Assembly (NCBI GenBank): GCA_021778125.1
Contig: JAJYCT010000001.1
Coordinates: 1 to 54,824, forward strand
From: Myxococcales bacterium
Lineage (GTDB): Bacteria; Myxococcota_A; Polyangia; Polyangiales; Polyangiaceae
Length of the DNA: 54,824 bases
Reading direction: 5' to 3'
Under the pieces are notes generated by a model that ran no database searches, was not told the origin of the DNA, and saw only the letters and a program-made list of their open reading frames with translations. The translations under genes were made by a program, and so were the position numbers. Shown here piece after piece: positions 528 through 21,102 of the stretch; position 1 is the stretch's first letter, and each line of letters starts with the position of its first letter.

Positions 528-1123
528 GGCCGCCGCTCCAGGCCGACGGCGAAGAGCTCCGTGCTCACCGCGCGCGTGCCCTCGGGGCGGATGAGCCTCT
601 CGTGGGCGAAGAGGCGGCGCAGCTCGGCGCGCGCCTCCGGCAGATCGTCGCTCATGAAGAGCTTGCCCACGAACGAGCCCCCCGCCGCGCACAGCGTACC
701 CGCGACGGCGAGCGCCCGCATGAACAGCTCGAAGCTGCGGGCCTGATCGGTCGGGCGGTTGCCCGTCGTGCGCGGCGCCATGTCCGACAGCACGACGTCG
801 TACGGGGCGAAGCGCGCGAGGTCCTCGTTCGCGAGCGACAGGGCGTCGCCCTGCACGAACGCGGCGTGCGGCGGCAGGGCGGCCCCGAGCGGCTCGAGGT
901 CGACGGCGAGCAGCTTGCCCGAGGGGCCTATCTTCTTGGCCGCGTACAGCGACCAACTCCCGGGGGAGGCTCCGAGGTCGAGCACGCGCATGCCGCCCCG
1001 GAGCAGGCGGGTTCGCCGGTCGATCTCCTCGAGCTTGAAGACGCTGCGCGCCGGGTAGCCCGCCTCCTTCGCGGCGCGCGTGAAGCGGTCGGGCTTCGCG
1101 TACGGGTTCTTGGAGCGGGACAT
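524..1123 (-). CDS. rlmE: 23S rRNA (uridine-2'-O)-methyltransferase RlmE/FtsJ
   Basis: 199-aa ORF with an ATG start. The N-terminus (NPYAKPDRFTRAAKEAGYPARSVFKLEEID), SAM-binding VLDLGASPGSWS, DVVLSDMAP and GGSFVGKLF are typical of the FtsJ/RlmE family. Length also fits. Confidence 0.92.
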   Translation of the reverse strand: MSRSKNPYAKPDRFTRAAKEAGYPARSVFKLEEIDRRTRLLRGGMRVLDLGASPGSWSLYAAKKIGPSGKLLAVDLEPLGAALPPHAAFVQGDALSLANEDLARFAPYDVVLSDMAPRTTGNRPTDQARSFELFMRALAVAGTLCAAGGSFVGKLFMSDDLPEARAELRRLFAHERLIRPEGTRAVSTELFAVGLERRP

Positions 1124-6100: not shown

Positions 6101-9100
6101 GAGCTCCAGCGCGCGCGGCTACGGGCCCCCGGGGAGGCGCTGGCCTCGCTGCGCGCGGCGCTCGAGCTCGATCCGGCTCACCCGGCGGTCCGCGAGGCGC
6201 TCGTCGCGCAGCTCGAGGCCCTGGGCGACGCGCGCGCGCTGCGCGACGGGCTCGTCGAGCTGGCGCAGAACGAGACGACGGCGGAGACGCGCGCCGGCCG
6301 GATGCTGCGCGCCGGCGAGATCGACGAGCTGATCCTCCTCGACGACGCGCACGCTGCGGCGCTCTACGCCCGGGCGCTCGGCGAGCTCCCGGGAGACGCG
6401 TGGATCGAGGAGCACCGCGCGCGCCTCGCGCAGCGCCAGGCGCGCCCCGGGCACGCCGCCGATCTCCTCGCGATCCTGCAGGCGAGGCTCGACGCCGCGC
6501 CCGCGAACCCCGCTCGGGCGTTCGAGCTCGCCCAGGCGCTCCTGGACTTCGGCGGAGACGTGGCCCGCGCGACCTCGCTCGTCGAGACCGTCCTCGCGCA
6601 GGCCCCGGCCGCGCCGCACGCGCTTCGCGTGCTCGAGCGTGTGGCGCGCACGACCGGGGCCGCGGCCCTGCTCGGCAACGCGCTCGACCAGCAGGCCGGC
6701 TCGTTCCGCGCGCCCACGCCCAGGCTGGCGGCGCTGTGGGCGGAGGAGGCGCTGGTCGAATGGACGCTGCCGGACGCCGACCCGGCGCCGATCCTCGAGC
6801 GCATCCTCGAGCACACGCCCGGGGACCGCGCCGCGCTCGACGCGACCGTTCGCCTTTCGCTCCCCGCCGCGCGGACGGGTGACTCGGCGGCGCGCGCGCG
6901 CCTGATCGGCGCATGGCGCACGCTGCTCGCGCAGACGGCGAGCGACATCGAGACCGCGGTGCGCCGGCTCGCGCTGGCGATGACGCTCGAGCCGGGGCAG
7001 GGGGCGCGCGCGGGTGACGACGCGCGGGGCGCGCTGGGCGAGTACCGGGAGGCGCTGCGCATCGACCCGCGCTCGCTGCTCGCCGCCGAGGGGACGGCGC
7101 GTATGGCGGCGCTGCTGGGCGACGCCGAGGCGACCGTGGCAGCGTCCCTCTCGCAGGCCGACCTCGCGCCGGACGCGAGGCAGCGCGCGACGGCGCTCGT
7201 GCGCGCGGCGGGTCTGCTCCTCTCGGCCCAGGACGCCCGCCTCGGGGAGCGGCCGGAGCGCCTGTCGCGCGCGTCGGAGACCCTCGAGCGGGCCCTCGAC
7301 GCGGATCCCGAGGCGCTGCCTGCCGTCGGCCTGCTGATCGCCGCGCGCACGGAGGAAGGCGCGCGGGACCGCCTCCTCGACGCGCTGCGCGCCGCGTTCG
7401 AACGGGTCAGGTCGGACGACGTCGTCGTCCACCTGGGGTCCGAGGTCGCGCGCATCGCCGCGCTGCCGCCGGCCCACCACGTCCTGGCGATCGAGGCGCT
7501 CCGCCGCGTTCTGGCCGTCGCACCCCGGCACGCGCCGACGCTGCGGATGCTCGCCGATCAGTACGTCCAGCAGGGGGCGTGGGCCGAGGCCGTCGAGGCG
7601 CTCGAGGCCCTCGCCGCGCAGGCGCGCGACGCGCAGGCCAGGCTCGCGGCGCTGTTTCAGCTCGCCGACGTCTACACGAACACGCTCCACCGCGCCGGGG
7701 ACGCCGAGCGTGTCCTGCGCGCCGCGCTCGACGTCGATCCCGCGAACCTGGACGCGCTCCGACGCCTGCTCGCTCACCTCCGGGCCGCAGGCGCCGACGC
7801 GAGCGAGATCGCGAAGTACCTGGCGCGGATGGCGGACGCCGAGGGCGAGCCCGCCGCGAAGGCCGCGGCGCTGGACGAGCTCGCGGAGAGCTCTCTCGCG
7901 CGCGGAGACGCCGGCGCGGGAGAGCGCGCGCTCGTCGAGGCGACGGCGCAGGCCCCGACGCCCGAACGCCTCGCGCGCGTCCTCGCGCTGCACCCGGGCG
8001 CTCCCGCCGAGCAGGCCCGCGTGCTCGCGGCGGTGGTCACCCGGAGCGAGGAGCTGGAGCGCCCCCACCCCGCCACGCTGGCTGGCCTCGGCCAGCTCGA
8101 GGTCGGGCTCGGCCGCTGGAGGGACGGCGTGGCGCACCTGCGCGTCGCGGTCGGCCTGGCCCCGGCGCTGGACGAGGCGCGCGCCGCGCTGGCGGCGGGG
8201 CTCACGCGCCTGCGCGGAGCGGCGGAGGCGATCGGGACGCTCGTGCCGATGCTCGTCCCGGATGCGTCGCCGCTGCTCTCCCTGCGCGATCCGGCAGGCG
8301 CTCTCGCGACCCTCGAGATCGCCCTCGATGCCGAGGGGCGGCGCGACGAGGCGCTCGTCGCCCGCGAGCTGCGCGCCGTTGCCGGGGGCCTCGACGACGG
8401 GGCTCACGTGGCCCTGCGGGCGCGACGGCTGGCGATCGACCCGAGGGCGCCGATCCCGGTCGCGCTCGACCCGGCGACGCTGCGCGCCGGCGTCCTGCCT
8501 CACGACACGTCCCGGCTGCTGCTCGACCTCGCGACCGCGCTCGTCGGGGCGGAGGACAAGCTCGCGCACGTCGACCGCGACGAGGCCGGCATCGGCCCGC
8601 GCGACCGCCTCGCGCCGACCGGAGGGCACCCGCTCCTCGTCCTCGTGCATCGCCTGGCGACGATGCTCGCCGTCCCGCGGCCGGAGATCGCGATCGTGGC
8701 GACCGCCGCGCCGCCGCGGATCGTGCTGAGCGACGGGCCGTGGCTGGTCGTCCCCGAGTCGCTCCTCGAGCAGCAGGAGCCGACGCAGACCGCGGCGCTG
8801 GTGCGGCCGCTGGTGCGCCTCGCCCTGGCGGTCCCGTGGCTCGACGCCCTGCGGGGCCCCTACGCGCAGGCAGTCCTGTGCGCGGCCGCACGGCAGGTCG
8901 ACCCCGGCTTCGCGTCGGACCTGCCCGCGGATCCGCTGGAGCTCGTGGAGGACTTCACGAAGAGGGTGGGGCGCGCCGTTGGACGCCGCAACAAGAAGGC
9001 GCTCGCCGAGCTGGCGCCGGCGCTCGCGCAGGTGCGGGGTCCAACGCTCGCCGACATCGCCGCGTTCGAGCAGGCCATCGCGCGGGCCGAGCTGCGCGCC

Positions 9101-9310
9101 GCCTTCGTCCTGACCGGCGACTTCCTGGCGACACTCGATTCGGCGCGTGCCCTCGACGCGGACCTCGAGAGGGCGACGGCGGACGTCGGCCCCGCGGCTC
9201 TGGCGGCCATCCTGCGAGACCCGCTCACCAGCGACGTGGCGAGGTTCGCGCTGTCCCCGGCGGCGACGGCCCTGCGCTGGCGCGCGGGGACGGTGTGGCC
9301 CGCGGCGTAG
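3146..9310 (+). CDS. giant Ser/Thr protein kinase fused to ~1400 aa of TPR-like helical repeats and a ~330-aa non-TPR C-terminal domain (2054 aa)
   Basis: GTG start. Kinase domain at about 3190-4010: [60 protein letters not shown]. The rest is Ala/Leu/Arg/Glu-rich with recurring ...A..AYE.AL.LDP...A... TPR-type periodicity. High GC3 over the entire 6.2 kb. Confidence 0.9.
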
Positions 9311-10696: not shown

Positions 10697-11767
10697 GTGA
10701 AGGTCGCCATCATCGGGGGCGGGATCATGGGGTGCGCCACCGCGCTGGCCCTGGTCGAGCGCGGCTGCGAGGTCGTCGTGCTCGAGCGCGCGGTCCCTGG
10801 CGCCGAGGCGTCGAGCGCGGCGGCGGGGATCCTCGGCGCGCAGCTCGAGCTTCACGGTCGGGGCGAGGACGTCGAGCTCTACCTCCGCGCGCGGACGGCG
10901 TGGGCGCCCTGGGCGCGGTCGCTCGGCGAGGCGACCGGCATCGACGTCGGGTACCGTGCGTGCGGCGCGCTGCGCCTCGCGTTCAACGCCGAGCAGCACG
11001 CGCAGCTCGACCGCGACGTCAGCTGGCAGCGCGAGCACGGCCTGCACGCCGAGAGCGTCGACGGTCACCGCGCGCGCCAGGTCGAGCCCGCGCTGTCCGG
11101 CGACGTCGTCGCCGCGGCGTACTTCCCGGACGACGCGCAGGTGGACCCGCCGTCGCTCCTGCGGGCGCTCATGGCGGCGCTCGCGCGCGACCCGCGCGCA
11201 GAGGTGCGCGGAGGCACCACGGTGGAGCGGCTGCTCCTCGACCGCGACCGCTGCGTGGGCGTGAAGCTCGACGAGGGCGAGGTCCGCGCCGACGCGACGG
11301 TCCTCGCGGCGGGTAGCTGGTCGTCTCTGGTGCCCGGCGTCCCGCCCTCGATGCCGGCCGTACGCCCCGTGCGCGGCCAGATCGTGCAGCTCGACGAGCG
11401 CCCGCCCAGCGTGCGCGCGATCGTGTTCGGCGCGGGAGGCTACCTGGTGCCGCGCGGGGACGGACGCGTGCTCTGCGGGTCGACGATGGAGCACGCCGGC
11501 TTTCGCAGGGAGGTCACCGCGTCCGGCGTCCACGCGATCCTGGGCAGCGCGCTCGCGTGCGTCCCCGGCCTCGGCGGCGCCCAGGTCGTCGCGACGTGGA
11601 GCAACTTCCGGCCTCACGCGCACGGCGACCGCCCCCTGGTGGGTGCCTCGGCGCTACCGGGGCTGTTTCTCGCGACGGGACATCACCGCAACGGCATCCT
11701 GCTCTCGAAGGTCACCTCCGACGAGGTCGCCGCGGCGATCACGGGGAGCCTCCCCGTCACGGGTTGA
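10697..11767 (+). CDS. thiO: FAD-dependent glycine oxidase (ThiO-like)
   Basis: N-terminal Rossmann motif VAIIGGGIMGCATALAL-ERG-EVVVLE, and a C-terminal GLFLATGHHRNGILL motif typical of ThiO/DAO-family oxidases. 356 aa. Confidence 0.75.
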   Translation: MKVAIIGGGIMGCATALALVERGCEVVVLERAVPGAEASSAAAGILGAQLELHGRGEDVELYLRARTAWAPWARSLGEATGIDVGYRACGALRLAFNAEQHAQLDRDVSWQREHGLHAESVDGHRARQVEPALSGDVVAAAYFPDDAQVDPPSLLRALMAALARDPRAEVRGGTTVERLLLDRDRCVGVKLDEGEVRADATVLAAGSWSSLVPGVPPSMPAVRPVRGQIVQLDERPPSVRAIVFGAGGYLVPRGDGRVLCGSTMEHAGFRREVTASGVHAILGSALACVPGLGGAQVVATWSNFRPHAHGDRPLVGASALPGLFLATGHHRNGILLSKVTSDEVAAAITGSLPVTG

Positions 11768-12983
11768 AGTCCTGCGCCGGGGGCGGTGACGCGGGCGCAG
11801 GCGGAGCCGGCGGCAGCGCAGGCGGAGCGGCGTGCGCAGGCGGAGCGGCGTGCGCGGGCGGAGCGGGCTTGGGAGACGCCGGCGGAGGCGAACTGGGCGG
11901 ATGCGCCGGCTTCGCCTCCTTCTTGTCGACCTTCTTCTCGTCCTTCTTGTCTTTGTCGTCCGGCTCCGCGGGGGCGAGCGTGTCGCCCTTGGTGACGTCG
12001 AACGCGGGCGGCGTGTTCGGATCGCATCCAGGGGCGAAGCCGGTGGCATCGAACTCGCTCTTGAGGCTCCCCTTCTGCTCGCCCTTGCCGTCCGCGTCCT
12101 TGGCGACGGCCTCGATGCGCACCTCGTGTCGCCCGGCGCGCGCGGGCGAGCAGTACGAGAGCAGGTAGTAGCTCTTCGTTCGCGCCTCGACCTTCGCGCC
12201 GACGTCGTCGAACGCCTTGACGATCGCGCTCTTGTCCTTCGCCAGCGCCGTGCCGCTCTTGCCGACCTCCTGGAGCTGGGTCGGCTGGATCTCTGCCCCG
12301 AGGCCGATGGCGAAGACGTCGAACGGCTTCTCGCGGATGTGTTGCTTCATCTCGGCCTCGGTCACGCGGTTGGCGCGATCCGAGCCGTCGGTGAAGACGA
12401 CGAGGGTGCCGAACTTGAGCGGCTGGCTCGCCTTGCCGAGCGCGCGGTCGAGCTCGTCGACGGCCTTCACCACGGCGCCGTACAGGTTGGTGCTCGGATC
12501 CTTGGGCTTGAAGCTCGAGAGCTGCGCGACGCCCGCCTTGGCGCTGCCCGCCTGATCGGTGAACGGCACGATGGGATAGAGGTCGGGGCTGCCGTCGAAG
12601 GCGTAGATGGCGACCTTCTGCTGCTTCTCGACGCGCTCGCTGAACGTGCCGACCGCCTGGACGAGGTCCGGCGTGGTGCCGCTCTCGCTCACGCTGCCGC
12701 TCATGTCGACGAGGAGCAGCGTGTAGTGCACCGCCGCGACCTCGGGGTTGAGGATCGTCTGCTTGCTCTCGTACTGCGAGACGAGCTGGCCGTCCTCGTA
12801 GATCCGGAACTGGTCCGACGTCAGCCCGCCGACCGGCTCGCCGGACTGCGTGCGGACCTTGAAGTAGACCGCCACATTGCTCGGCTTCTGCTGCGTCATC
12901 TTGATGGTGTTGAGCTGCAGACCGGCGCAGCCGGTGGCGGCCAGAAGCAGCGGCAGGATCAGCGACGAGCGCGGGAATTTCAC
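11757..12983 (-). CDS. VWA-domain lipoprotein with Lys/Pro-rich C-terminal tail
   Basis: Lipobox in VKFPRSSLILPLLLAATGC. Perfect MIDAS (LLLVDMSGSVS ... FDGSPD ... VVFTDGSD). C-terminal DDKDKKDEKKVDKKEAK, then PAPPAHAAPPAHAAPPALPPAPP. GTG 12983 is preferred over the tracked 13034, because 12984-13034 is a non-coding element shared with the 27009-27060 locus. The 3' end overlaps thiO convergently by 11 nt. Confidence 0.85.
   Translation of the reverse strand: MKFPRSSLILPLLLAATGCAGLQLNTIKMTQQKPSNVAVYFKVRTQSGEPVGGLTSDQFRIYEDGQLVSQYESKQTILNPEVAAVHYTLLLVDMSGSVSESGTTPDLVQAVGTFSERVEKQQKVAIYAFDGSPDLYPIVPFTDQAGSAKAGVAQLSSFKPKDPSTNLYGAVVKAVDELDRALGKASQPLKFGTLVVFTDGSDRANRVTEAEMKQHIREKPFDVFAIGLGAEIQPTQLQEVGKSGTALAKDKSAIVKAFDDVGAKVEARTKSYYLLSYCSPARAGRHEVRIEAVAKDADGKGEQKGSLKSEFDATGFAPGCDPNTPPAFDVTKGDTLAPAEPDDKDKKDEKKVDKKEAKPAHPPSSPPPASPKPAPPAHAAPPAHAAPPALPPAPPAPASPPPAQDFNP
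11819..11854 (-). repeat. perfect 18-nt tandem duplication (CAGGCGGAGCGGCGTGCG x2, plus a partial third unit) encoding AHAAPP repeats
   Basis: Read directly: units at 11819-11836 and 11837-11854 are identical, and a degenerate third unit follows. Confidence 0.8.
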
Positions 12984-13034
12984 GGGCCGCAGTCTAGCCC
13001 CGAGGGCGAGGGGAGCCTGTGCTATTTCGAGCAC
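12984..13034 (-). promoter_or_regulatory. conserved upstream element, copy A (GTGCTCGAAATAGCAC - 17 nt - GGGGCTAG - 10 nt - GTG start)
   Basis: Minus-strand reading. Shares 14/16 and 8/8 identical blocks, with nearly identical spacing, with copy B at 27009-27060. Confidence 0.45.
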
Positions 13035-13064
13035 GGGCGCCGTGCGCGCCCGCCGCCGGGGACT

Positions 13065-13622
13065 TCACCGCTCCACGGCAAACGAGCGGACGATCGACTC
13101 GCACGTCGAGCGGTAGCGCTCGAACGCGCTCGACGACACCGCGCACGTCACGACGTACCCGGTCCCGTGCGACGCGAGGGCCGTCTGGATCGTGCGGTAC
13201 GCGAGCGGCGCAGGGGACGCCGCCGTCCATCGGGACTCGAGCATCAGCGTCGGATCCCCGTCGACGACGTCGTCGCGCACGGCGTCGACCGTGGCCAGGT
13301 TCTGCTCGCGCAGGCCCGCCTCGTTGGCGCGTGCGAAGTCGTACGAGTCGCCGCTGAAGGGCTCGGTCACCACGTTGGCGTTCGCGTGGTAGTCGTCGAC
13401 CGATTGAGGGTCCGAGACGGACCAGGCCGCCGGCCCTTTCTGGGCCGCGACCCTCCACGTCGACGGGACCGCGATGCGCCAGCCGGCCCCCGTCTGCTCC
13501 ACGAAGCCCGCCGGGAGGGGCGGAGGCGTGAACGCCGAGACCCTCGCGTGCTTCGAGCGCCCGCAGCCCGGAGCGAGCGCCACCGCGAGCACGAGCAGCA
13601 CGACGGCGGCGGAGCGCGGCAT
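13065..13622 (-). CDS. lipoprotein, PsbP/DcrB/LpqN-like fold suspected
   Basis: Lipobox in MPRSAAVVLLVLAVALAPGC. The pattern GW.I.VP..W ... N.NVV.E.... Y ... LE..W ... GYVVTC......F......I..SF resembles PsbP-like (DUF1795/LpqN-type) lipoproteins. The fold assignment is by pattern only. Confidence 0.65.
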   Translation of the reverse strand: MPRSAAVVLLVLAVALAPGCGRSKHARVSAFTPPPLPAGFVEQTGAGWRIAVPSTWRVAAQKGPAAWSVSDPQSVDDYHANANVVTEPFSGDSYDFARANEAGLREQNLATVDAVRDDVVDGDPTLMLESRWTAASPAPLAYRTIQTALASHGTGYVVTCAVSSSAFERYRSTCESIVRSFAVER

Positions 13623-13642
13623 GGACCCATCCTAACCCAGGT

Positions 13643-14872
13643 CTAGTGACCACCCCTTCGCGTGGTCGACGGAGACGGCTGCAGCGGCTCGATCGGTTCG
13701 AACGGCGCGTTCGGCGGAGGGAGCACGACGCTGCCCGGCGCGATGGACGTCGGCCCGTCGGCCGCGGCGTCGCTCGCCGGCATCGGGAGGTCGCCCGTGG
13801 GCGTCGTCCGCCCGCCCAGATCGAGAAGGTGCATCGCAAGTACAATCCCGAGCAGGATCACCGCCACGATCGCCAGAGCGAGGGTGATGACCATGCCGGG
13901 GCTCACTCCGCGTCGCGTCCGGAGCTCGCGCGCCAACGGAGGCGGCGGCGCGGGAGCCGGCGGCAGGACGACCGGCGCCGCGACGAGCGGTTCGGTCATG
14001 CGCTCCGCGCGTCCCTGCGCCATCGCGGGCGGGGCGTTCGGGATCTCGTCCGGGTCCGCCATCACGCTCGTCTGCGCGACGGTCGGCGCGACGGGAGCCG
14101 CGACGGCCGCTGCGGCCTCGCGCGTGCGCAGGATGATCACGGTGATGTTGTCGTGGCCTCCGCGGGCGTTCGCGAGATCGACGAGCTTGCCGGCCGCCTG
14201 CGCCGCCGGCTCGCTGCCCACGATGCCCAGGATCTCGTGGTCCTCCACGAGGTCACTCAGACCGTCCGAGCAGAGCACGAACGCGTCGCCCGGTACGTGC
14301 AAGACGGGCTCGGGCCGCAGCTCCGACTCGACCTGGGGCGCCATGCCGAGCGCGCGCGTGATCCGGTTGGCGTCGGGGTGGTGGGCGGCCTGCTGGGGCG
14401 TGAGCAGGCCGCGATCGACCATCTCCTGGACCATCGAGTGATCGCGCGTGATCCGGAAGATCTGCCCGGCGTGCACGAGGTATGCGCGGCTGTCGCCCAC
14501 GTGCACGACCTCGGTCCCCTGCGCGTGCACGACGATCGCGACGGCCGTGGAGCCCGGCCGTCCCATGGCGACCTCGCTCGTCGCCATGACGTGAACGCGG
14601 CGGCTCGCCTCCTCGACGGCGCTCTTCAGCAGGGCGCCCGCGGGCGTCCCCTCCGGTGCCTGCGCGAACACCTCGAAGATGGTCGCCAGGGCGAGCTGCG
14701 CGGCCTCGCGCCCCGACGCGTGGCCGCCCATCCCGTCGCACACGACGCAAAGGTGCCCGAAGCGCGTCTCGCGGTGACCGCAGGCGTCCTCGTTGACCTG
14801 CTTGTCCGGATCGCGCCCCGGATCGGAGCGCTCGGCGTACTCGACGACCGGGAGGTCGGGCGTCGTCTCCAT
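13643..14872 (-). CDS. PP2C-family Ser/Thr phosphatase with C-terminal TM anchor and short extracytoplasmic Pro-rich tail
   Basis: From ATG 14872: NEDA, VVCDGMGGHASGREAA, VGDSRAYL, LCSDGLSD and GGHDNITVII (PPM motifs). TM helix MVITLALAIVAVILLGIVLAMHLL. Starts 13 nt downstream of the preceding FHA gene. Confidence 0.9.
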   Translation of the reverse strand: METTPDLPVVEYAERSDPGRDPDKQVNEDACGHRETRFGHLCVVCDGMGGHASGREAAQLALATIFEVFAQAPEGTPAGALLKSAVEEASRRVHVMATSEVAMGRPGSTAVAIVVHAQGTEVVHVGDSRAYLVHAGQIFRITRDHSMVQEMVDRGLLTPQQAAHHPDANRITRALGMAPQVESELRPEPVLHVPGDAFVLCSDGLSDLVEDHEILGIVGSEPAAQAAGKLVDLANARGGHDNITVIILRTREAAAAVAAPVAPTVAQTSVMADPDEIPNAPPAMAQGRAERMTEPLVAAPVVLPPAPAPPPPLARELRTRRGVSPGMVITLALAIVAVILLGIVLAMHLLDLGGRTTPTGDLPMPASDAAADGPTSIAPGSVVLPPPNAPFEPIEPLQPSPSTTRRGGH

Positions 14873-14885
14873 GGGCCTTCGACGC

Positions 14886-17339
14886 TCACGCCTCGAGCTG
14901 TACGGCGAACTCGATGGGTCCGAAGCGCAGCGGCGCACCGGAGGGGACGCTCGTCCACACGCCCGGCGGGATCCGCGCGCCCCCCACCCACGTGCCGTTG
15001 TTCGATGTCTCGTCGCGCACCAGGAGCTGACCTGCGTCGAAGCGCAGCGTGGCGTGCACGCCGCTCACGCGCGGCTCGCTCAGCAAGATGGGGCACTGGG
15101 CCGGATCGCGCCCGACGCGCATCTCGGCCCCGGCGTGCACGGTGAACTGACCCAGCGCGCCGCGGATGGTGGCCGCGCCCGGCAGCGCCGCCGGGGGAGG
15201 CCCGTAGGGGCTCGGTGGGGGCATGAGCGGCGGGGCGTTCATGGCGCCGGTGAGAGGAAACCCGGGGGCAGCGACGCCCCCACCTCCCTTCACCACGTCG
15301 GCAGGCAAGGGCTGGCCACACGAGAAGCACACCGAGGGCTGACCGGGGGTCGCCATCGTGCTCATCCCGCAGGCCGGACAGGTGACCTGGACCGGAGGAA
15401 GCGGCACCGCGGGACCCGTTTCCCGCGGTGGCGATAATGGAGTGGGAGGCGGCGCGAACATCGCCGGCGGCGGCGCGAAGGCCACCCCCGACATGCCGCC
15501 GGGTGCGGCGGCCGTCGCCGCGAGCGGGTCCGCAAGGCCCTGCCGCATGCCATAGCCGCCCGGCGGGGGAGCGCCGTAGCCGCCACCCGGAGGCGCGCCG
15601 TACCCGCCCGGAGGCGCGGGCTGCGCCGGCGGAGGCGCGCCGCCTCCACGCTTCTTTCCGCCGCCGCCCTTGAGCAGCACCATGACGAGCAGCACGATCA
15701 CCACCAGCAGCCCCGCGATGCCCGCAATGAGCGGCCACGACACGGGCTTCTTGGTGGCCTTGAGCGTGAGGACGGTCTTCGCGTCGAGCGACGATGCGCG
15801 GTGCGCGTTGTTGTCGTAGACGACCAGCCGCGCGACCATGTTGTCGCCCGTGCCGTCGAGGACCTTCGCGTCGTCCGGAACCGTGAACGTCACGTAGCCC
15901 TGCGCGGCCTGCACGGCCTGGCCGACCATGTTCTCCTGCTGGAGCGTCTGCATGGCCTGCTGCGCGACCTTCGGATCGCGGCTGTTGGCGTTGGCCGGCG
16001 GCGTGGTCCCCGCGGGGATGAAGTACGACTCGGCCCGGGACTTGTCGCCGTCCCAGCAGAAGTTGCCGTACACGGTGACCTGGCCGCCGGGGTAGACGGG
16101 GGTGGTGTTGGACGCCTCGAGGGTCTTCTTCACGTCGACGTCGAGCGGCCACTGCGTCGGATCGATCCCCAGCGGCACGTCCTTGAACGTCCCGTCGGGC
16201 GCGATCATCGGCTTGGTGTTCTCGAACACCAGGTTGAACGTCTGCTCGACGCTCGGGTTGATGCACGACAGCTGCCAGTGCACCAGCCACATCGCGTTGA
16301 AACGGGCGCGCACGAGGTTGACGATCGTCTTGCCCTTGGCGCCGCCCTCGCCCTCCTTGACGACGTCGAAGAAGCCGCCGATCTCGGGGTTCGCGAGCGA
16401 CTGCATGAACTGCGCTTCGTTGTTCTGGTAGATGCTCTCCGAGAAGCTCGACGGGTTGGGGAACCAGATCGAGACCACCGGCAGCGGCGTCTTCGGCAGC
16501 GCCGTGTTGTCCGTGGGGAAGCGGCCGCCGTTCAGGTACTGGTGGAAGACGTCGGCGCTTGGCGACGCGCTCTCGGGATCGCCGCGGCCCGCTCCGTTCG
16601 AGAGCAACACCATCGACTGGTGCAGCGGCACTTGATCGGGGGCGTCCGAGTTGCCGAGGCTCCCGAACGCGTCCTGCGTCATGCGCTTGATCTGCGAGAA
16701 CAGCGCGCGGTTGGCGCCGTGCGACGGCATCGGCGACTTGAACTCGTTGAGCAGCGACGCCAGGTTCGCGCGCTGCTTGTACGTCATCCACTTGCTGTCC
16801 TTAACGACCTGAACGTCGTCGAAGAACATCAGGTCCATCAGGTCGTTCGGCTGCATCGCTTCGATGAGCTCGTGCGCGATGGCGCGCGCGTCGCCGAAGC
16901 GAGGGCCCATGCCCGACGACGCGTCGATGGACACGAGCCACGCGGTGCCGACGTTCGGCTCGTTCTGCGCCTTGCCCCACGTCTGCTTGTCGACGAACGT
17001 CGTCAGCGTGTCCTGGCCCGCCACCTTCACGAGCAGGTGGGCGTTCGCCTCCGGGAACGGGAACGGATCCCAGAGCGCGCCCGGCTTCTCGAGCTGCTGG
17101 CTCCAGCACGAGAGCGTCGCGGCGCCCGTGGCGCCCGCGCACGGCTGCAGCACCTCGGACAGGCGCTTGAACTGCACGACCTCGAGGACGGTCGTGAGCG
17201 TGGGCTTGCCGTTGTTCATCCCCGCGCGGGGGTCGATCCGCAGGATGTGAGCCTCGGGGGCGGCCTGGGCGCCGCGCGCGAGGAGCAGGGACACACATGT
17301 CAGCAACAGCGAGAAGGCATGGGACAGTCGTCGGGTCAT
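14886..17339 (-). CDS. single-pass receptor-like protein: secreted VWA-like ectodomain - TM - Gly/Pro/Tyr-rich linker - zinc ribbon - FHA domain (817 aa)
   Basis: Signal peptide (SLLLTCVSLLLARGAQA). VWA-like region with imperfect MIDAS (WLVSIDASSGMG ... MVLLSNGAGRGD). TM helix WPLIAGIAGLLVVIVLLVMVLL followed by KGGGGKKRGG. PPGGYGAPPGGGYGAPPPGGYG linker. CPACG-N13-CFSCG zinc ribbon. C-terminal FHA (MRVGRD ... VSGVHATLRF ... VRDETSNNGTWV). Confidence 0.88.
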   Translation of the reverse strand: MTRRLSHAFSLLLTCVSLLLARGAQAAPEAHILRIDPRAGMNNGKPTLTTVLEVVQFKRLSEVLQPCAGATGAATLSCWSQQLEKPGALWDPFPFPEANAHLLVKVAGQDTLTTFVDKQTWGKAQNEPNVGTAWLVSIDASSGMGPRFGDARAIAHELIEAMQPNDLMDLMFFDDVQVVKDSKWMTYKQRANLASLLNEFKSPMPSHGANRALFSQIKRMTQDAFGSLGNSDAPDQVPLHQSMVLLSNGAGRGDPESASPSADVFHQYLNGGRFPTDNTALPKTPLPVVSIWFPNPSSFSESIYQNNEAQFMQSLANPEIGGFFDVVKEGEGGAKGKTIVNLVRARFNAMWLVHWQLSCINPSVEQTFNLVFENTKPMIAPDGTFKDVPLGIDPTQWPLDVDVKKTLEASNTTPVYPGGQVTVYGNFCWDGDKSRAESYFIPAGTTPPANANSRDPKVAQQAMQTLQQENMVGQAVQAAQGYVTFTVPDDAKVLDGTGDNMVARLVVYDNNAHRASSLDAKTVLTLKATKKPVSWPLIAGIAGLLVVIVLLVMVLLKGGGGKKRGGGAPPPAQPAPPGGYGAPPGGGYGAPPPGGYGMRQGLADPLAATAAAPGGMSGVAFAPPPAMFAPPPTPLSPPRETGPAVPLPPVQVTCPACGMSTMATPGQPSVCFSCGQPLPADVVKGGGGVAAPGFPLTGAMNAPPLMPPPSPYGPPPAALPGAATIRGALGQFTVHAGAEMRVGRDPAQCPILLSEPRVSGVHATLRFDAGQLLVRDETSNNGTWVGGARIPPGVWTSVPSGAPLRFGPIEFAVQLEA

Positions 17340-17387
17340 CTCGGCGTAGCCTCGGTCGTTGGCGCCACGTGGCGCGTGAGCATGGAA

Positions 17388-18254
17388 CTAGACGCGGCCG
17401 ATGACCTTGACGATGGTCGTGAAGCCGCCGAAGCGGACACGGTCGCCGTCGCGGAGCTCGCGCCGCCCGTTGAACCCGATGTGCTCGTCGTTGACGAACG
17501 TACCGTTGGTCGAGCCGGTGTCCTCGACCGAGATCCCGCCGCTCGACGCGTCGACCACGAGGGCCGCGTGGCGCGACGAGATCGTGGGATCCTGGATGGA
17601 AAGGTCGATGCCGTCGCTCGGCGTGAGGCGCCCGACCGTCAGCCGACCGCCCGTCAGGGGCCAGAAGTCGCCGCTCGGGTTCGCGCCGTACGCGACGAGG
17701 AAGCCCCGCACGATCTTCGGCGGGACCGACGTGTCGGTGGCGCCGGGCGGGGCGTACGCGGGGGGGGGCGCGCCGAAGCCGCCCTGCGGGGAAGGAGCGG
17801 GGGCGTACCCCGGCTGCGGGGGCGCGCCGAAGGGAGCCGGCGGGGCGCCGAACTGCCCACCCTGCGGCGGCGGAAAGCCCGGCTGCGGAGGCGGCGCGCC
17901 GAACGCGGACGCCGGCGGAGGGACGCCGTACGGGCTCGCCGGAGGCTGCGGGGCCCCATAGCCCGGCGGCGCGCCGAACTGCATCTGGTCCATCGCGATC
18001 GGGTGGCCCTGCGCGCAGTAGCTCGCGCCGGGCGCAATCTCGTGGCCCATCTGGCAACGGGGGCCAGCGGGGGCACCGGGCGCGGCGCCGTAGCCGGGGG
18101 GGGCGAAGCCCCCCTGTGCCGGCGGTGCGTAGGCGGGCTGGCCGTACCCGCCGCCCGGCGCCGCGGGGGGAGCGGCCGCCAGGGGCGTCCCGCACACGTT
18201 GCAGAACTTGTCGGTCGGTTTGGCCACGGTGCCGCACTGTGCGCATGCGCTCAT
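17388..18254 (-). CDS. zinc-ribbon / Pro-Gly-Tyr-rich / FHA-domain protein (288 aa)
   Basis: N-terminal CAQCG-N10-CNVCG. About 170 aa of GYGQPAYAPPAQGGFAPPGYGAAPGAP-type low complexity. C-terminal FHA (LTVGRL ... ISSRHAALVVD ... VEDTGSTNGTFVN). Confidence 0.88.
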   Translation of the reverse strand: MSACAQCGTVAKPTDKFCNVCGTPLAAAPPAAPGGGYGQPAYAPPAQGGFAPPGYGAAPGAPAGPRCQMGHEIAPGASYCAQGHPIAMDQMQFGAPPGYGAPQPPASPYGVPPPASAFGAPPPQPGFPPPQGGQFGAPPAPFGAPPQPGYAPAPSPQGGFGAPPPAYAPPGATDTSVPPKIVRGFLVAYGANPSGDFWPLTGGRLTVGRLTPSDGIDLSIQDPTISSRHAALVVDASSGGISVEDTGSTNGTFVNDEHIGFNGRRELRDGDRVRFGGFTTIVKVIGRV

Positions 18255-18317
18255 GGGATCGCCCTTGGTCGCCTTCTGCGCGCCGCACGTGGCGCGCAGG
18301 GGGCAGCATATCGAAAG

Positions 18318-18335
18318 TCGCCCGGAAAGGGGCGA
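18318..18335 (-). terminator. weak terminator-like hairpin after larC (TCGCCC-loop-GGGCGA followed by CTTTCGATAT on the minus strand)
   Basis: A 6-bp GC stem seen directly, 10 nt past the larC stop, with a partially T-rich tail. It may uncouple larBC from the FHA operon. Confidence 0.25.
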
Positions 18336-18344
18336 TCGACGCGC

Positions 18345-19691
18345 CTACCGCCCCGTGGCGGCCGCAGCCAGCGCCGCACGGACGACCTCGCGGACGGGCA
18401 CGCCGTGGGCTCGCGCCGCGGCGGCGCAGGCGTCGAACTCCGGCTTGACCTGCGCCGGCCCGAACGGCCCCTCGGCCACCTTCACGGGGATGGTGCCGTA
18501 CGGCGTGTCGACCTGGATCATGCGGCGCGGCCGCTCCGCGCGCGTGACGTCGACGCGCCGCACGCCGAGCGACGAGGTCTCGCGCAGCAGCGCGTGCGCC
18601 ACCGCCTCGGCCCGCTCGACCGGAGCGAGCGCCGAGATCGTCAGCGCCGGGCGCCCCTTCTTCATGGTGATCGGCGTGGCCCACGCGTCGAGCGCGCCGG
18701 CGGCGAGGAGCGCCTCGATCCAGGCCGCGGCGAGCTCGCCGGTCGCGTCATCCACGTTCGCCTCGAGCACCGAGTGCGTCGCGGCGCCTTCGAGGCCCCG
18801 CCCCGCGGCGGTCGTGGCGCCGAGCACCGCGCGGAGCACGTTCGGCCGATCGGCCAGGTCGGCCGTCCCGGCGCCCCACCCGACGCGCTCGGGGGACATC
18901 GCGGGCCAGCGCGCGCTCCCCGAGGCCTGCGCGCCGACGATGGCCGCGCCGGTGGGCGTGACCAGCTCGAACTCGATCCCTGCGTCGTACGTGGGCAGCC
19001 CGACGAGGCACTCGACGACCGCCGGCGGCGGCAGCGGCAGCGTGCCGTGTGCCGCCTTCGTGTAGCCCCGTCCCATCGGCAACGGCGACACGACCAGCTC
19101 CGCGCCCAGGTGCTCGAGCGCCGCGGCGCTTCCGACCACGTCGACGACGGCGTCGACCGCGCCGACCTCGTGGAAGTGCACGTCGTCGATCGCCGTGCGG
19201 TGCACCTTGGCCTCCGCCACGGCGAGCCTGTGGAACGTGCGCTGGGCGCGCGCCTTGACGCCCTCGGGCAGCGGCGCCGCGTCGAGCATCGCGCGGATCG
19301 CCCCGTACGTCCGCTGCGGCTGCGCGCCCTCGACGTGCACGTCGAACGACGACGCGACGATCCCGCTGCGCACCCGCGTCCCGAAGTGCACGTGGTAGCC
19401 GCGCAGGGGCAGGGCCTCGAGCGCTTCCTCGACGGCGCGCGCCGGGACGCCCAGATCGACGAGCGCGGCGATGATCATGTCCCCGGCGAGCCCGCTCGGC
19501 GCGTCGAGGAAGAGCACCTTGCCGCGTCCGGCGCCGCGGATCAGGTCGTGCGCCGGGCCGCGCCCGCTCTCCGCGCCGTGGGCGTGCGCCGGGTGCGCGT
19601 CGGCGTGCTCGCGAGCGTGCTCGTGACCCGGGTGGGCATGGCCATGCCCGTCCCCTCCGTGGTCGTGTCCGTCGTGCGCGTCGTGCCCCAT
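18345..19691 (-). CDS. larC: nickel-pincer cofactor biosynthesis protein LarC (DUF111 nickel insertion protein) with His-rich N-terminal extension
   Basis: [58 protein letters not shown] and TMKKGRPA match the LarC/DUF111 family. The first 39 residues contain 13 His. Confidence 0.85.
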
Positions 19692-19700
19692 CCGTCGCCC

Positions 19701-20462
19701 TCAGTACTGCTCGCGCGTCCGCAGGATGCGGGCCGCGGCGTACGCCGCGCCGAAGCCGTTGTCGATGTTGCACACGACCACGCCCGAAGCGCAGCTCGAG
19801 AGCATCCCGGCGAGCGCGGCGAAGCCGCCGAAGCTCACGCCGTAGCCGACCGACGTCGGCACGGCGATGATCGGACCGGACACCATCCCGCCCACCACGC
19901 TCGGCAGGGCTCCCTCCATGCCCGCGACCACGATGACGACGCTGGTGCGCTCGAAGACCTCGCGCTTGTGCAGCAGGCGGTGGATGCCCGCGACGCCGAC
20001 GTCGTAGACCCGCTCCACGCTCGCGCCGAGCATGCGCAGCGTCTCGGCGCACTCCTCGGCCACGGGCAGGTCGCTCGTCCCGGCGCTCACGAGCGCCACC
20101 GGGCGCGTCCCCAGCGGGGGGATCGGCGCCTGCTCGAGCGTCGCGGTGCGCGACAGCTCGTGGAACGTCATGGCGGGGACCGCCGCGCGCACGGCCTGCG
20201 CCTTGTCGGCGTCGAGCCGGGTGACGAGCACGTTGTCCCCGGCGCGCGCGAGCTCGCGCGCGATCCCGGCGATCTGTTCGGCCGTCTTGCCGTGGCCCAG
20301 GATGACCTCGGGCGCGCCGTGGCGCAGCGCCCGGTGGTGGTCGACCGCCGCGTAGCCGAGGTCGGCGTACGGCAGATCCTTGAGCTCGCGCAGCGCCGCC
20401 TCGACGCCGGTGGCGCCGCTCTGGACGCCCTCGAGGAGCTCGCGCAGGCGCTTGGCATCCAT
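19701..20462 (-). CDS. larB: nickel-pincer cofactor biosynthesis protein LarB (AIR-carboxylase-like)
   Basis: From ATG 20462 (253 aa): [43 protein letters not shown] and [34 protein letters not shown] are typical of the LarB/PurE-like family. 9 nt upstream of larC. Confidence 0.85.
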
Positions 20463-20526
20463 GGGCGGCGCGAGCCTAGCACCGGGTGCGCGCGCGTCGA
20501 CGTGGCGCCTCGCCGGGCGCAAACCG

Positions 20527-21102
20527 GTGTACCCTGCGCGCGCCTTGCCAATCGCCTTCGCTCCTCTGCTCGGCCTCGCCCTCGGCGCGGCGCTCGCCTG
20601 GGTCGCCGCGCCCGAGCTCGTCCGCATCGACGGCCCCGTCATCGCCTGTCGTCCGTTCGCGGTCGTCGCGGGCTTCGCGGGGCTCGTGTGGCTGCCGGTC
20701 GTCGGCTACTTCGTCGCCTTCCACGGCGACTGGTCGTACCTGTACGCCGTCGCGTGGCAGCGCGTGCCGAGCGCCGTCGATCTCGGCCTGGTGCTGCTCG
20801 CGGGAGCGGCCCTCGTCGGCGGCTTCTGGCTGGCGGTGCGCCCGGTGCGGACGCGTCGCTCCGGCCCGGTCGTCGCGCTCGTCGTCGCCCCCGCGGCCCT
20901 CGCGGCGATCGGCCTCGTCCTCGCCGCCCATCGCCTCGGCGTGAGCGGCACGTACGCCCAGTTCCACGGCGACTTCGGCACGGAGCCCATCGGTTCGAGC
21001 GTCCTCGGCAAGGGCGTGCTCGTCATGGATGGGCTGCTCGCGCTCGGGGTTGGCTGGACCGTACGGGCGCTGCTGCGGATGGCCGCCGAGGCCCGCCGCT
21101 GA
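20527..21102 (+). CDS. hypothetical polytopic membrane protein
   Basis: High GC3. Five hydrophobic helices (e.g. PIAFAPLLGLALGAALAWVAA, FAVVAGFAGLVWLPVVGYFVAF, LGLVLLAGAALVGGFWLAV, VVALVVAPAALAAIGLVLAA, GVLVMDGLLALGVGWTV). The start is uncertain: GTG 20527 is preferred, while ATG 20461 would overlap the larB start. Confidence 0.55.
   Translation: MYPARALPIAFAPLLGLALGAALAWVAAPELVRIDGPVIACRPFAVVAGFAGLVWLPVVGYFVAFHGDWSYLYAVAWQRVPSAVDLGLVLLAGAALVGGFWLAVRPVRTRRSGPVVALVVAPAALAAIGLVLAAHRLGVSGTYAQFHGDFGTEPIGSSVLGKGVLVMDGLLALGVGWTVRALLRMAAEARR

Follow-up and report, generated by a model that had tools for sequence, protein, structure and literature searches.

The five minus-strand genes described here (g1 to g5, Table 1), which lie in a 54,824-nucleotide stretch of Myxococcales contig JAJYCT010000001.1 (the window), make up a genuine uncharacterised locus of soil myxobacteria (Polyangiales). 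Its conserved unit consists of g1 and g2, usually followed by g3, rather than of five genes. With a probability of roughly 0.5, we take the locus to be a Polyangiales-specific inner-membrane module for phosphothreonine signalling or scaffolding, which ancestrally would have gated an exporter and in which g4 and g5 would be clade-specific partners. The claim of the sequence-only reading that this is not a characterised system stands: the arrangement is named in none of the sources, its proteins have no NCBIfam equivalog and PADLOC returned nothing on the locus beyond a weak generic PP2C match. Nor does the locus fully show the defining features of Rv1747/PknF/PstP, FhaA-FhaB-PstP, ArnA/ArnB or TerY-P.

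The gene coordinates and intergenic gaps (48, 13, 20 and 81 nt from g1 to g5) given by that reading were reproduced from the open reading frames. Its domain calls were all recovered, by Pfam for the two FHA domains, the PP2C and the g5 VWA and by structure models for the g2 VWA and the PsbP/DcrB-like g4, and its parts list and membrane topology proved correct by Pfam, structure models and topology analysis. GC3 is 0.89-0.94 in g2, g3, g4 and g5, g1 being outside the GC3/GC2 filter of the ORF listing from which these figures derive. Kinase domains occur in the window only at 3-542 (minus strand) and 3146-9310 (plus strand), in agreement with the claimed lack of a kinase in cis, and no T6SS families were detected among the window ORFs scanned with Pfam, again as had been stated.

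Table 1. Genes, protein segments and promoter-like elements of the locus (nucleotide positions refer to the window, aa to the respective protein).
Feature	Position	Strand	Remarks
g1	17388-18254	-	ORF
g1 N-terminal Zn-ribbon	aa 4-22		Pfam Zn_Ribbon_1
g1 second motif	aa 67-84		CxxxH...CxxxH
g1 linker			~150 aa, Pro/Ala/Gly-rich, disordered
g1 C-terminal FHA	aa 206-276		Pfam
g2	14886-17339	-	ORF
g2 ectodomain	aa 27-535		periplasmic beta-sandwich, VWA and beta domains, after signal peptide
g2 TM	aa 537-555		single
g2 linker			Gly/Pro-rich; conserved ADPLAATA (603-610) and FPLTGA (694-699)
g2 Zn-ribbon	aa 654-675
g2 FHA	aa 741-807		Pfam
g3	13643-14872	-	ATG start within ORF 13643-14938
g3 catalytic domain	aa 23-250		cytoplasmic
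g3 TM	aa 327-345		preceded by Pro/Ala linker, followed by ~60-aa periplasmic tail
g4	13065-13622	-	ORF
g5	11757-12983	-	GTG start within ORF 11757-13034
g5 VWA	aa 88-245		MIDAS D93xS95xS97, T165, D199
g5 tail	aa 331-408		Pro/Ala/Lys-rich
Promoter-like element TTCGATATGCT	18305..18315	-	upstream of g1; -10-like hexamer TATGCT, 18310-18305
g1 leader	18255..18299	-	GC-rich hairpin 18299-18276, then AGAAGG...AGGGCGA ribosome-binding region
-10-like hexamer TAGACT	12991..12996	-	7 nt 5' of g5 GTG start (12983)

The first protein, g1, is probably a soluble cytoplasmic adaptor. Pfam assigns a Zn_Ribbon_1 (2.3e-6) and an FHA domain (5.8e-16) to it and no hydrophobic segment was found. Its partner g2 is predicted to be a type I, single-pass membrane protein, in which all four cysteines of the ribbon (CPxC...CxxC) are invariant and the FHA domain is matched by Pfam at 1.5e-12. 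The phosphothreonine-binding residues GR...SxxH...NG are kept in the FHA domains of both proteins. The g2 ectodomain finds no match in Pfam; its AlphaFold (AF2) model, which is of moderate confidence (pLDDT 67.8, pTM 0.65), appears to contain a VWA fold, with Foldseek matches in the E-value range of 1e-6 to 1e-7 to integrin I-domains (target-normalised TM 0.65-0.70), ITIH1 (2.6e-7) and ArnB (8s05_B, 1e-6). The MIDAS of this domain is degenerate (DASSG, aa 139-143), which makes metal-dependent ligand binding less likely; DxSxS is complete in just 13 of 160 relatives. With 194 clusters among 1.84e9 representatives, g2 belongs to a narrow family. The third protein, g3, is a PstP-like membrane-tethered PP2C phosphatase: it is recognized by Pfam (PP2C_2 1.7e-17, PP2C 6.1e-14), has all catalytic motifs (NED, DGMGGH, GST, VGDSR, SDG and DN), those for metal binding included, and reaches 203 bits against the NCBIfam Stp1/IreP PP2C model, below the cutoff of 230. 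The disordered linkers are Pro/Gly/Ala-rich, that of g2 carrying conserved Thr motifs.

Conservation was surveyed in about 160 related loci. The order g1-g2-g3 recurs in about 70 Polyangiales genomes, showing that the arrangement is not due to chance, and among 80 Polyangiales genome loci, in which g2 is 47-83% identical, nearly all have it. Almost every genome locus, and 55 of 63 loci from a more divergent metagenome set, has a g1-like gene directly 5' of the g2-like one, and g1-g2(-g3) extends across the whole family to about 31% identity, with the signal peptide-ectodomain-TM-FHA architecture of g2 persisting to 31% identity as well. A PP2C gene follows directly downstream in just 10 of 53 divergent metagenome loci and is missing from one close-clade locus (L028). 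The five-gene unit originally proposed has a stable order within the close clade of the window, but g4 and g5 are missing outside it.

The g1-g2 core is most commonly partnered by an Rv1747-type ABC-2 exporter with three FHA domains, an ABCG-like protein with the architecture FHA-FHA-FHA-NBD-ABC-2. In most loci outside the close clade, its gene is located directly after that for PP2C or g2. It is found directly 3' in at least 23 of the 28 metagenome loci that have at least 5 kb of downstream sequence, and in locus L083 its start overlaps the stop of the g2-like gene by 4 nt. The exporter was found neither in the window nor within 10 kb to either side at any close-clade locus, and the proposed client is thus missing in cis here. 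Some relatives contribute a kinase: a Hanks kinase is encoded directly after PP2C in L052 and L043, and in L127-type loci a Zn-ribbon kinase follows the exporter, such that the description as kinase-less applies to the cluster in the window but not throughout the family. Since no other partner of the core is as frequent, exporter control is suggested as the ancestral output, over ligand or adhesion sensing.

The module might work as follows. Hanks kinases, whose genes lie elsewhere in this genome and, for a few relatives, in cis, would phosphorylate linker Thr residues of g2, g1 or a client, with the conserved g2 motifs ADPLAATA and FPLTGA as candidate acceptor sites. These marks would be read by the two FHA domains of g1 and g2. 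Several readers combined with several sites could then allow a multivalent cluster to assemble at the membrane, which the PP2C g3 would dissolve, thereby resetting the scaffold. For M. tuberculosis Rv1747, the FHA-linker-FHA module is reported to condense upon phosphorylation by PknF, an effect undone by PstP (PMC9312465, citing Heinkel 2019; PMC3138270). In analogy to this clustering, and given the exporter downstream in most relatives, the most likely ancestral job would be to gate or cluster that exporter and to link it, via the g2 ectodomain, to an assembly in the periplasm. In the clade of the window, g4 and g5 may be partners or cargo of this ectodomain that are peculiar to the clade and reside in the periplasm or outer membrane, their coupling looking looser than that among g1, g2 and g3. 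The likeness to Rv1747/PknF/PstP comprises FHA domains, disordered Thr-bearing linkers, a membrane-anchored PP2C and a Hanks kinase as well as, in the relatives, an exporter with FHA, NBD and ABC-2 directly downstream of g2 or g3. It is one of domain architecture, Rv1747 having two FHA domains versus three in the Polyangiales exporters. In addition, Rv1747 has neither a VWA-ectodomain partner nor a separate Zn-ribbon-FHA adaptor, and the exporter is not part of the present window.

The two remaining genes are confined to the close clade, in which g2 identity is 73% or more and where they are situated at the place held by the exporter in other lineages. The g4 product has a lipobox (LAPGC, Cys20) and yielded nothing in Pfam, NCBIfam or PDB sequence searches. 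Its AF2 model (pLDDT 82.9) is matched by Foldseek to PsbP (1e-8, target-normalised TM at most 0.76), LpqN (1.4e-4), DcrB (1.3e-3) and also MTC28, pointing at a lipoprotein with a PsbP/Mog1/DcrB/LpqN-like fold. All 319 g4 homologues stem from close relatives, the family was found in no context other than the present locus, and three look-ups placed the gene between those for PP2C and g5 in four of four long-contig places examined. The g5 protein (lipobox LAATGC, Cys19) is recognized as VWA_3 (1.8e-7), VWA_2 (1.8e-6) and VWA (4.7e-6) by Pfam and partially matches TIGR03436. It indeed has the complete MIDAS noted earlier (DMSGS, followed by T165 and D199), which does not vary in any of 16 orthologues. 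Both genes are absent from close-clade loci L004 and L033 and g4 from L001 and L006, while adjacency of g5 is kept in about 14 of 16 close-clade loci.

Separate promoter-like elements lie ahead of g1 and of g5. When the larC-g1 spacers of 16 close-clade loci are aligned, TTCG[AT]TATGCT is nearly invariant; it may act as a promoter. The g1 leader that follows always contains a GC-rich stretch and a conserved ribosome-binding region, whereas the sequence of the hairpin itself varies. Ahead of g5, a conserved element had already been noted; in 13 of 14 g5-orthologous loci, TA[GC]A[CA]T is found 6-9 nt 5' of the start codon, while the remainder of the g4-g5 spacer is unalignable. The geometry of this hexamer resembles that of a leaderless-type promoter, and separate transcription of g5, first raised as a possibility, is now considered probable.

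These observations bear on the suggestion of the sequence-only reading that all five proteins belong to a single complex sensing ligands or adhesion at the envelope, in which the g2 VWA, g4 and the g5 VWA signal inward to FHA and PP2C. In its favour, each of the three extracytoplasmic parts was borne out, the close clade keeps a stable five-gene order with the g4 family found only there, and the invariant g5 MIDAS is as in adhesive VWA domains. Among myxobacteria, a VWA lipoprotein that acts as an adhesin is known in CglB, an outer-membrane component of the gliding machinery of Myxococcus xanthus (PMC9946355); set beside the description of CglB, g5, a VWA lipoprotein with complete MIDAS, differs in having just three Cys, a Pro/Lys-rich tail, an occurrence in one Polyangiaceae clade and no Glt genes nearby. 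Still, we regard a single complex with a ligand role as unlikely, because g4 and g5 are missing outside the close clade and from some loci within it, g5 has a predicted promoter of its own, g2 has a degenerate MIDAS that varies among relatives, and what accompanies the core across the family is an ABC exporter instead of a second VWA protein.

A further reading draws on the actinobacterial fhaA-fhaB-pstP(-rodA-pbpA-pknA-pknB) cluster, in which a soluble long-linker FHA protein, a membrane FHA protein and a PP2C with TM and extracytoplasmic tail are encoded in the same order as g1, g2 and g3 (PMC6554272). By this token, the FHA proteins and PP2C would regulate envelope growth or division, tuning enzymes of peptidoglycan or envelope synthesis that kinases phosphorylate in trans. 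FhaB_Rv0019c is the top NCBIfam FHA match, the PP2C is nearest to Stp1/IreP and the locus is vertically inherited in a neighbourhood of housekeeping genes. However, rodA, pbpA and PASTA-kinase genes are absent from the window and all related loci, the FhaB score amounts to 40 bits versus a cutoff of 125 and the locus stays below NCBIfam equivalog cutoffs. Moreover, g1 bears Zn-binding motifs in place of the FhaA N-terminal domain, FhaB is devoid of the 500-aa VWA ectodomain of g2 and it is an ABC-2 exporter that recurs as neighbour. This reading is thus improbable.

The same low estimate applies to the view that the genes are mere neighbours in a slowly rearranging region that keeps synteny, with g1-g3 and g4-g5 functionally unrelated. 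Throughout the order, unrelated genes such as LarB-LarC share the synteny of g1-g3, ADH-orf202-LarB-LarC to the same degree, and conserved order alone is thus weak evidence for functional coupling; the separate promoter-like elements before g1 and g5 fit this view as well. Against it speak the retention of the g1-g2 pair in divergent loci whose flanks differ, short gaps of 13-48 nt, the stop-start overlap between g2-like and FHA-ABC genes in L083, the confinement of the g4 family to the locus and a coherent domain logic that places readers and eraser on one membrane.

Other known systems share parts with the locus. In Sulfolobus, Hanks kinases together with a phosphatase regulate the motility-repressing ArnA/ArnB module (PMC6509490, PMC12852372). 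ArnA (Zn-finger and FHA) resembles g1 and also the half of g2 that lies in the cytoplasm, profile searches matching 5a8i and 8s05_C weakly, and ArnB (vWA and beta-sandwich) resembles the g2 ectodomain model. Both Arn proteins are cytoplasmic, and Zn-finger and FHA bind the vWA protein directly. As the VWA of g2 lies across the membrane from its own Zn-ribbon and FHA, such contact is impossible here; furthermore, ArnAB works with a PP2A phosphatase in an archaeal host as opposed to PP2C in a bacterium. VWA and PP2C are encoded together in the TerY-P triad (TerY-like VWA, PP2C and Ser/Thr kinase-Zn-ribbon) and, with FHA, in the Deinococcus DRA0331-0334 operon (VWA-STPK-FHA-PP2C) (PMC11090510; bioRxiv 10.64898/2026.01.23.701218). 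Both have a cytoplasmic VWA and a kinase in the operon, in contrast to the two exported VWA domains and lacking cis kinase here, and an association with Ter or restriction genes is not seen. The T6SS pathway PpkA-PppA-Fha1, with which the locus was originally compared, likewise ties a periplasmic VWA across the membrane to cytoplasmic phosphothreonine signalling with FHA and PP2C. Its parts list is indeed shared, but Rv1747/PknF/PstP, FhaA-FhaB-PstP, ArnA/ArnB and TerY-P are closer, PpkA has its VWA fused to a kinase and not to a reader, the TagH/Fha1 model is unmatched and T6SS genes are lacking nearby. To read the locus as a stress or anti-phage module like TerY-P, or as a threonine-phosphorylation pathway of the T6SS type, would account for the common VWA, PP2C, FHA and Zn-ribbons and the Zn-ribbon kinase of some relatives, yet is highly improbable given that both VWA domains are exported, PADLOC is negative save for the generic match, TagH/VI_FHA scores are 22-24 bits versus a cutoff of 120, T6SS, nuclease and Ter genes are absent among the window ORFs scanned and the related-locus ORFs examined, and inheritance is vertical among housekeeping genes.

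The signalling and scaffolding module proposed here ties a periplasmic VWA-type domain to cytoplasmic phosphothreonine readers and a phosphatase.

Five genes, g1 to g5, follow one another on the minus strand between 11757 and 18254, separated by gaps of 48, 13, 20 and 81 nt. A sequence-only reading had described these genes, with no kinase among them and no type VI secretion genes in the window, and the open reading frames bear it out on coordinates and spacing as well as on both absences. The G+C content of the window is 72%, and third-position GC lies between 0.89 and 0.94 for g2 to g5 (g1 fell outside the filter of the GC listing), the level expected of genuine genes in this genome. Kinase domains occur at two places in the window only, 3-542(-) and 3146-9310(+), and none is found between 11757 and 18254; T6SS Pfam families are absent among the window ORFs scanned. 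No Glt genes, the partners of a CglB-type gliding adhesin, were seen in the window, and its remaining genes are of housekeeping or hydrolase type. The gene at 3146-9310 encodes a 2054-aa Hanks kinase with TPRs, which we rejected as cognate writer because it is not conserved beside the cluster in relatives. Long antisense ORFs with high third-position GC overlap this gene. Relatives do not have the 2054-aa kinase here; in the related locus L001, the interval from the L19 gene to the DAO region contains argJ. Just past the g4 stop (13020-13060) is a GC-rich inverted repeat, CGGGCGC...GCGCCCG, that lacks a T-run and shows no conservation at other loci.

Features of the cluster and its flanks in the window, and of kinase-bearing related loci (prefixed L)
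Feature	Position	Strand	Remark
g1, Zn-ribbon/FHA adaptor	17388-18254	-	ORF
g2, secreted VWA-TM-Zn-ribbon-FHA protein	14886-17339	-	ORF
g3, membrane-anchored PP2C	13643-14872	-	ORF
g4, PsbP/DcrB-like lipoprotein	13065-13622	-	ORF
g5, VWA lipoprotein	11757-12983	-	ORF
LarC	18345-19691	-	upstream of g1, same strand; LarB also upstream
FAD oxidoreductase (DAO)	10697-11767	convergent	downstream end of cluster; adjoins g5
TAGACT-type element	12996-12991	-	upstream of g5 GTG at 12983
493-aa Hanks kinase with C-terminal TM segment	L052:14026-15507; L043 ~14088-15149		67 nt past PP2C, two related MAGs
Secreted 282-aa protein	L127:14170-15018		GYSQG (GxSxG) motif; no Pfam match
Zn-ribbon-Hanks kinase	L127:15066-16646		downstream of secreted 282-aa protein

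Pfam profiles back a Zn-ribbon and an FHA domain in g1, FHA in g2, PP2C in g3 and VWA in g5, all of which had been called from the sequence. Both FHA domains (PF00498; 59.1 bits in g1 and 48.2 bits in g2 against a cutoff of 20.7) possess the phosphothreonine-binding residues GR, SxxH and NG in the translations, and g3 passes the PP2C profiles (PF13672/PF00481) with 64.1 and 52.7 bits and has all of the metal-binding motifs DGMGGH, VGDSR, SDG and DN. The VWA_3 (31.8 bits), VWA_2 (28.9 bits) and VWA (27.4 bits) matches of g5 each exceed their cutoffs, and its MIDAS (DMSGS, T165, D199) does not vary in any of 16 orthologues. For the VWA domain of g2 and the PsbP/DcrB-like nature of g4 it is the fold that stands, not the sequence match. 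The ectodomain of the window's g2 has no Pfam or NCBIfam VWA match and the distant homologues P0253 and P0258 yield sub-threshold VWA_2 matches only, but a predicted model of residues 27-535 (pLDDT 67.8, pTM 0.65) matches ITIH1 (2.6e-7), the integrin alpha1 I-domain (8.4e-7, target-normalised TM 0.68, within 0.65-0.70 for integrin I-domains), ArnB of the ArnAB complex (1e-6) and the Catenulispora vWA 4fx5 in Foldseek. The model thus predicts a VWA fold of the integrin I-domain type, and the matches indicate a domain order of beta-sandwich, VWA and beta-rich domains. The MIDAS of g2 is not intact in the window (D-A-S-S-G, plus LSNG where LTDG is expected), and the canonical DxSxS is present in 13 of 160 family members. 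Complementarity, with an intact g2 MIDAS wherever g5 is absent, is ruled out by the degeneracy of the g2 motif almost everywhere. The g4 protein finds no match in Pfam, NCBIfam or PDB (phmmer), and only the fold search succeeded: its predicted model (pLDDT 82.9) hits PsbP (1e-8, target-normalised TM up to 0.76) as well as LpqN, MTC28 and DcrB, pointing at a PsbP/Mog1/DcrB (DUF1795) fold.

Hydropathy and N-termini place g1 in the cytoplasm and make g2 a type I membrane protein whose VWA domain faces outward and whose Zn-ribbon and FHA lie inside. In g3 the PP2C domain is inside, followed by a single TM helix and a short tail on the outer side; the N-termini mark g4 and g5 as lipoproteins. At the inner membrane, the cluster provides two readers of phosphothreonine and one eraser, and one of the readers, the FHA domain of g2, is covalently joined to a periplasmic VWA module. 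The linkers of g1, g2 and g3 are long and rich in Pro, Gly and Ala, and that of g2 contains an invariant Zn-ribbon as well as the conserved Thr-containing motifs ADPLAATA and FPLTGA. Within the otherwise low-complexity g1 linker lies another motif that may bind metal, CQMGH...CAQGH (CxxxH-x8-CxxxH; aa 67-84, window 18003-18056), for which Pfam gives no match; residues 66-93 are 81-92% identical in several distant relatives, e.g. the loci L019, L062 and L068 (tblastn).

When one genome was scanned for each GTDB species, 164 related stretches came up. Every credible one belongs to the Polyangiales, and Labilithrix luteola DSM 27648, a cultured bacterium, is among the carriers. Close homologues of g2 are also found by the hundreds in soil metagenomes, where their fullest name is 'FHA domain-containing protein [Polyangiaceae]'. 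A full HMMER pass with the g2 ectodomain identified just 194 clusters among 1.84 billion cluster representatives, and the signal peptide-ectodomain-TM-FHA architecture is retained down to 31% identity. Neighbourhoods were mapped by tblastn, the GC3-based gene caller being unsuitable for lower-GC loci, and these maps reveal a LarB-LarC-g1-g2-g3 arrangement in nearly all of 80 genome loci at g2 identities of 47-83%. The locus is inherited vertically. LarB-LarC (nickel-pincer cofactor synthesis), an ADH and a 202-aa ORF keep their synteny with g1-g3 throughout the Polyangiales (window 18345-20642, loci L001-L081). This could point to a functional connection or be no more than conserved gene order. 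As these genes are equally syntenic, gene order in this region carries less evidential weight.

Of the five-gene unit originally proposed, then, g1-g2-g3 recurs, whereas g4 and g5 are confined to loci in which g2 is at least 73% identical to that of the window, hereafter the close clade, and are patchily distributed. L004 and L033 have neither, L001/L003 and L006 are devoid of g4, and in L027 g5 is situated some 7 kb away. Homologues of g4 form a narrow family of 319 proteins, and the gene resides between those for PP2C and the VWA lipoprotein in four of the four long-contig places examined. In the close-clade MAG locus L028 (PLIR01000154.1, 7775-11987) a g1-g2-g4-g5 arrangement occurs with no PP2C between g2 and g4, reflecting either a genuine loss of the eraser gene or an assembly error. 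The PP2C gene of L001/L003 (12445-13309) appears frameshifted in a long-read MAG contig and was missed there by automatic gene calling, which calls for caution with presence/absence counts based on gene calls. In some close-clade loci a gene for a predicted DUF481 outer-membrane barrel comes after g5 (L162:8898-9968, L166:8900-10000); it is absent from the window.

A sigma-70 consensus scan of 11400-18600 found no promoter, and the promoter-like elements reported here come from cross-species alignment only. In the LarC-g1 spacer (window 18255-18344) a nearly invariant TTCG[AT]TATGCT (18315-18305) is followed by a GC-rich hairpin leader (18299-18276), the sequence of which varies by species with the GC-rich stretch always kept, and then by a conserved ribosome-binding region, AGAAGG...AGGGCGA. 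These features suggest that g1 starts its own transcript, and the spacer may act as a structured 5' leader or operator. The g4-g5 spacers are unalignable except for TA[GC]A[CA]T, which 13 of 14 loci carry 6-9 nt upstream of the g5 start, so that the separate upstream element claimed for g5 is indeed there; its position would fit the geometry of a leaderless transcript. Together with the patchy distribution of both genes, a putative promoter of its own for g5 speaks for g4 and g5 being accessory and not part of the core.

In most loci outside the close clade, the PP2C gene (or g2) is directly followed by a gene encoding an ABCG-like exporter of about 1000 aa that combines three FHA domains with an ABC ATPase and an ABC-2 membrane domain; one such gene lies at L034:13653-16676. 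In Labilithrix luteola DSM 27648, which has g1-g3 near 11.12-11.14 Mb of NZ_CP012333.1, the exporter gene is located some 3 kb past PP2C. Among metagenome loci from a scan seeded with divergent family members, a g1-like gene is directly upstream in 55 of 63, PP2C directly downstream in 10 of 53 and the FHA-ABC exporter within 8 kb downstream in at least 23 of 28. At the related locus L083 the exporter start even overlaps the g2-like stop by 4 nt. Apparent g2 variants with several FHA domains were rejected, since ORF and Pfam checks assign the tandem FHA domains to the separate exporter gene. No such exporter is encoded in the window, where FHA matches are limited to g1 and g2, or within 10 kb on either side at any close-clade locus. 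Loci of the L127 type have the exporter, then the secreted 282-aa protein and then the Zn-ribbon Hanks kinase, and a kinase at a similar downstream offset recurs in about ten metagenome loci. In L052 and L043 a Hanks kinase comes directly after PP2C, which makes it a candidate for the cognate writer of the family. A cis kinase as the ancestral state was dismissed, as a kinase beside PP2C exists only in these two loci (75% mutual identity) and in L022.

Among known systems, the Rv1747 type from M. tuberculosis probably comes closest in its mode of action. Its hallmark, an FHA-FHA-NBD-TMD exporter encoded at the locus, is missing in the window but present directly downstream in most relatives beyond the close clade. 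ArnA/ArnB shares the vocabulary and fold of Zn-finger-FHA and vWA-beta-sandwich proteins (PMC6509490, PMC12852372) but acts by direct contact in one compartment; here the VWA domain is periplasmic and Zn-ribbon and FHA are cytoplasmic, so that ArnAB-type contact is topologically impossible. The cluster repeats the gene order of actinobacterial fhaA-fhaB-pstP without the cell-wall genes of that locus (PMC6554272): downstream we found g4, g5 and DAO instead of rodA-pbpA-pknAB, FhaB_Rv0019c scores 40.5 and 26.7 bits against 125, and Stp1_PP2C reaches 203 against an equivalog score of 230. TerY-P and the Deinococcus DRA0331-0334 operon combine VWA, PP2C and kinase (plus FHA), the VWA protein being cytoplasmic and the kinase in cis (PMC11090510; bioRxiv 10.64898/2026.01.23.701218). 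In our cluster, both VWA domains sit behind a signal peptide or lipobox, and the Zn-ribbon-fused Ser/Thr kinase of the TerY-P operon has no counterpart at 11757-18254. Likeness to the T6SS threonine-phosphorylation pathway is limited to the parts list, with 23.9 and 22.3 bits for the TagH/Fha1 model TIGR03354 against a cutoff of 120. An anti-phage defence system was rejected, PADLOC giving no system match and only a weak generic PP2C match (PDC-M21C, 38 bits). The locus exhibits the defining features of none of the T6SS, TerY-P, ArnAB, fhaA-fhaB-pstP or PADLOC systems.

Its way of working is probably, by analogy, most like that of Rv1747/PknF/PstP. Published work on Rv1747 describes condensation of its FHA-linker-FHA module upon phosphorylation by PknF, dissolution of the condensate by PstP, and nanoclusters of the transporter in the membrane (PMC9312465; PMC3138270). 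Following this documented behaviour, Hanks kinases acting in trans, and occasionally in cis, would phosphorylate linker threonines. The phosphosites would be cross-linked into a membrane cluster by the FHA domains in g1 and g2, and by those of the triple-FHA exporter at loci that have it, and g3 would undo this cluster. The g2 ectodomain would connect this cluster to a periplasmic partner, for which the clade of the window offers two candidate lipoproteins, g4 with its PsbP/LpqN-like fold and g5 with its MIDAS-competent VWA domain. The cluster noticed in the sequence-only reading is confirmed and the interpretation given there is supported in part; the exporter is the usual partner outside the close clade. 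Going further, it is conceivable, at a probability of roughly one in five, that g2 represents an integrin-like class of bacterial single-pass receptors in which kinase-driven, PP2C-reversed FHA condensation controls, or is controlled by, a periplasmic assembly. The periplasmic VWA/beta-sandwich ectodomain would be wired via one TM helix to the cytoplasmic phosphothreonine reader, and the FHA-ABC exporter would form the centre of the assembly in most Polyangiales, whereas in this clade the PsbP-like and MIDAS-VWA lipoproteins would take part in it. If true, this would amount to bidirectional transmembrane signalling through a receptor that itself lacks a kinase or two-component domain.

The module is real, widespread and uncharacterised in the Polyangiales. 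What is new is the secreted VWA-TM-Zn-ribbon-FHA protein, together with its repeated occurrence alongside a Zn-ribbon-FHA adaptor and a membrane-bound PP2C and, in loci beyond this clade, alongside an ABC exporter gated by FHA domains; the locus is a variant of a Ser/Thr phosphosignalling module and not a separate category. Polyangiales kinomes are among the largest in bacteria and, to our knowledge, almost no Ser/Thr signalling in this order has an assigned output. Widespread, vertically inherited and equipped with readers, an eraser and mostly an Rv1747-like exporter, the locus offers a second, phylogenetically independent system suited to testing whether FHA-phosphothreonine multivalency clusters membrane transporters. 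It is also a rare case of an extracytoplasmic VWA domain hard-wired to a phospho-reader and not to a kinase, and it shows a conserved signalling core exchanging its downstream partner between sister clades, from an ABC exporter to lipoproteins.
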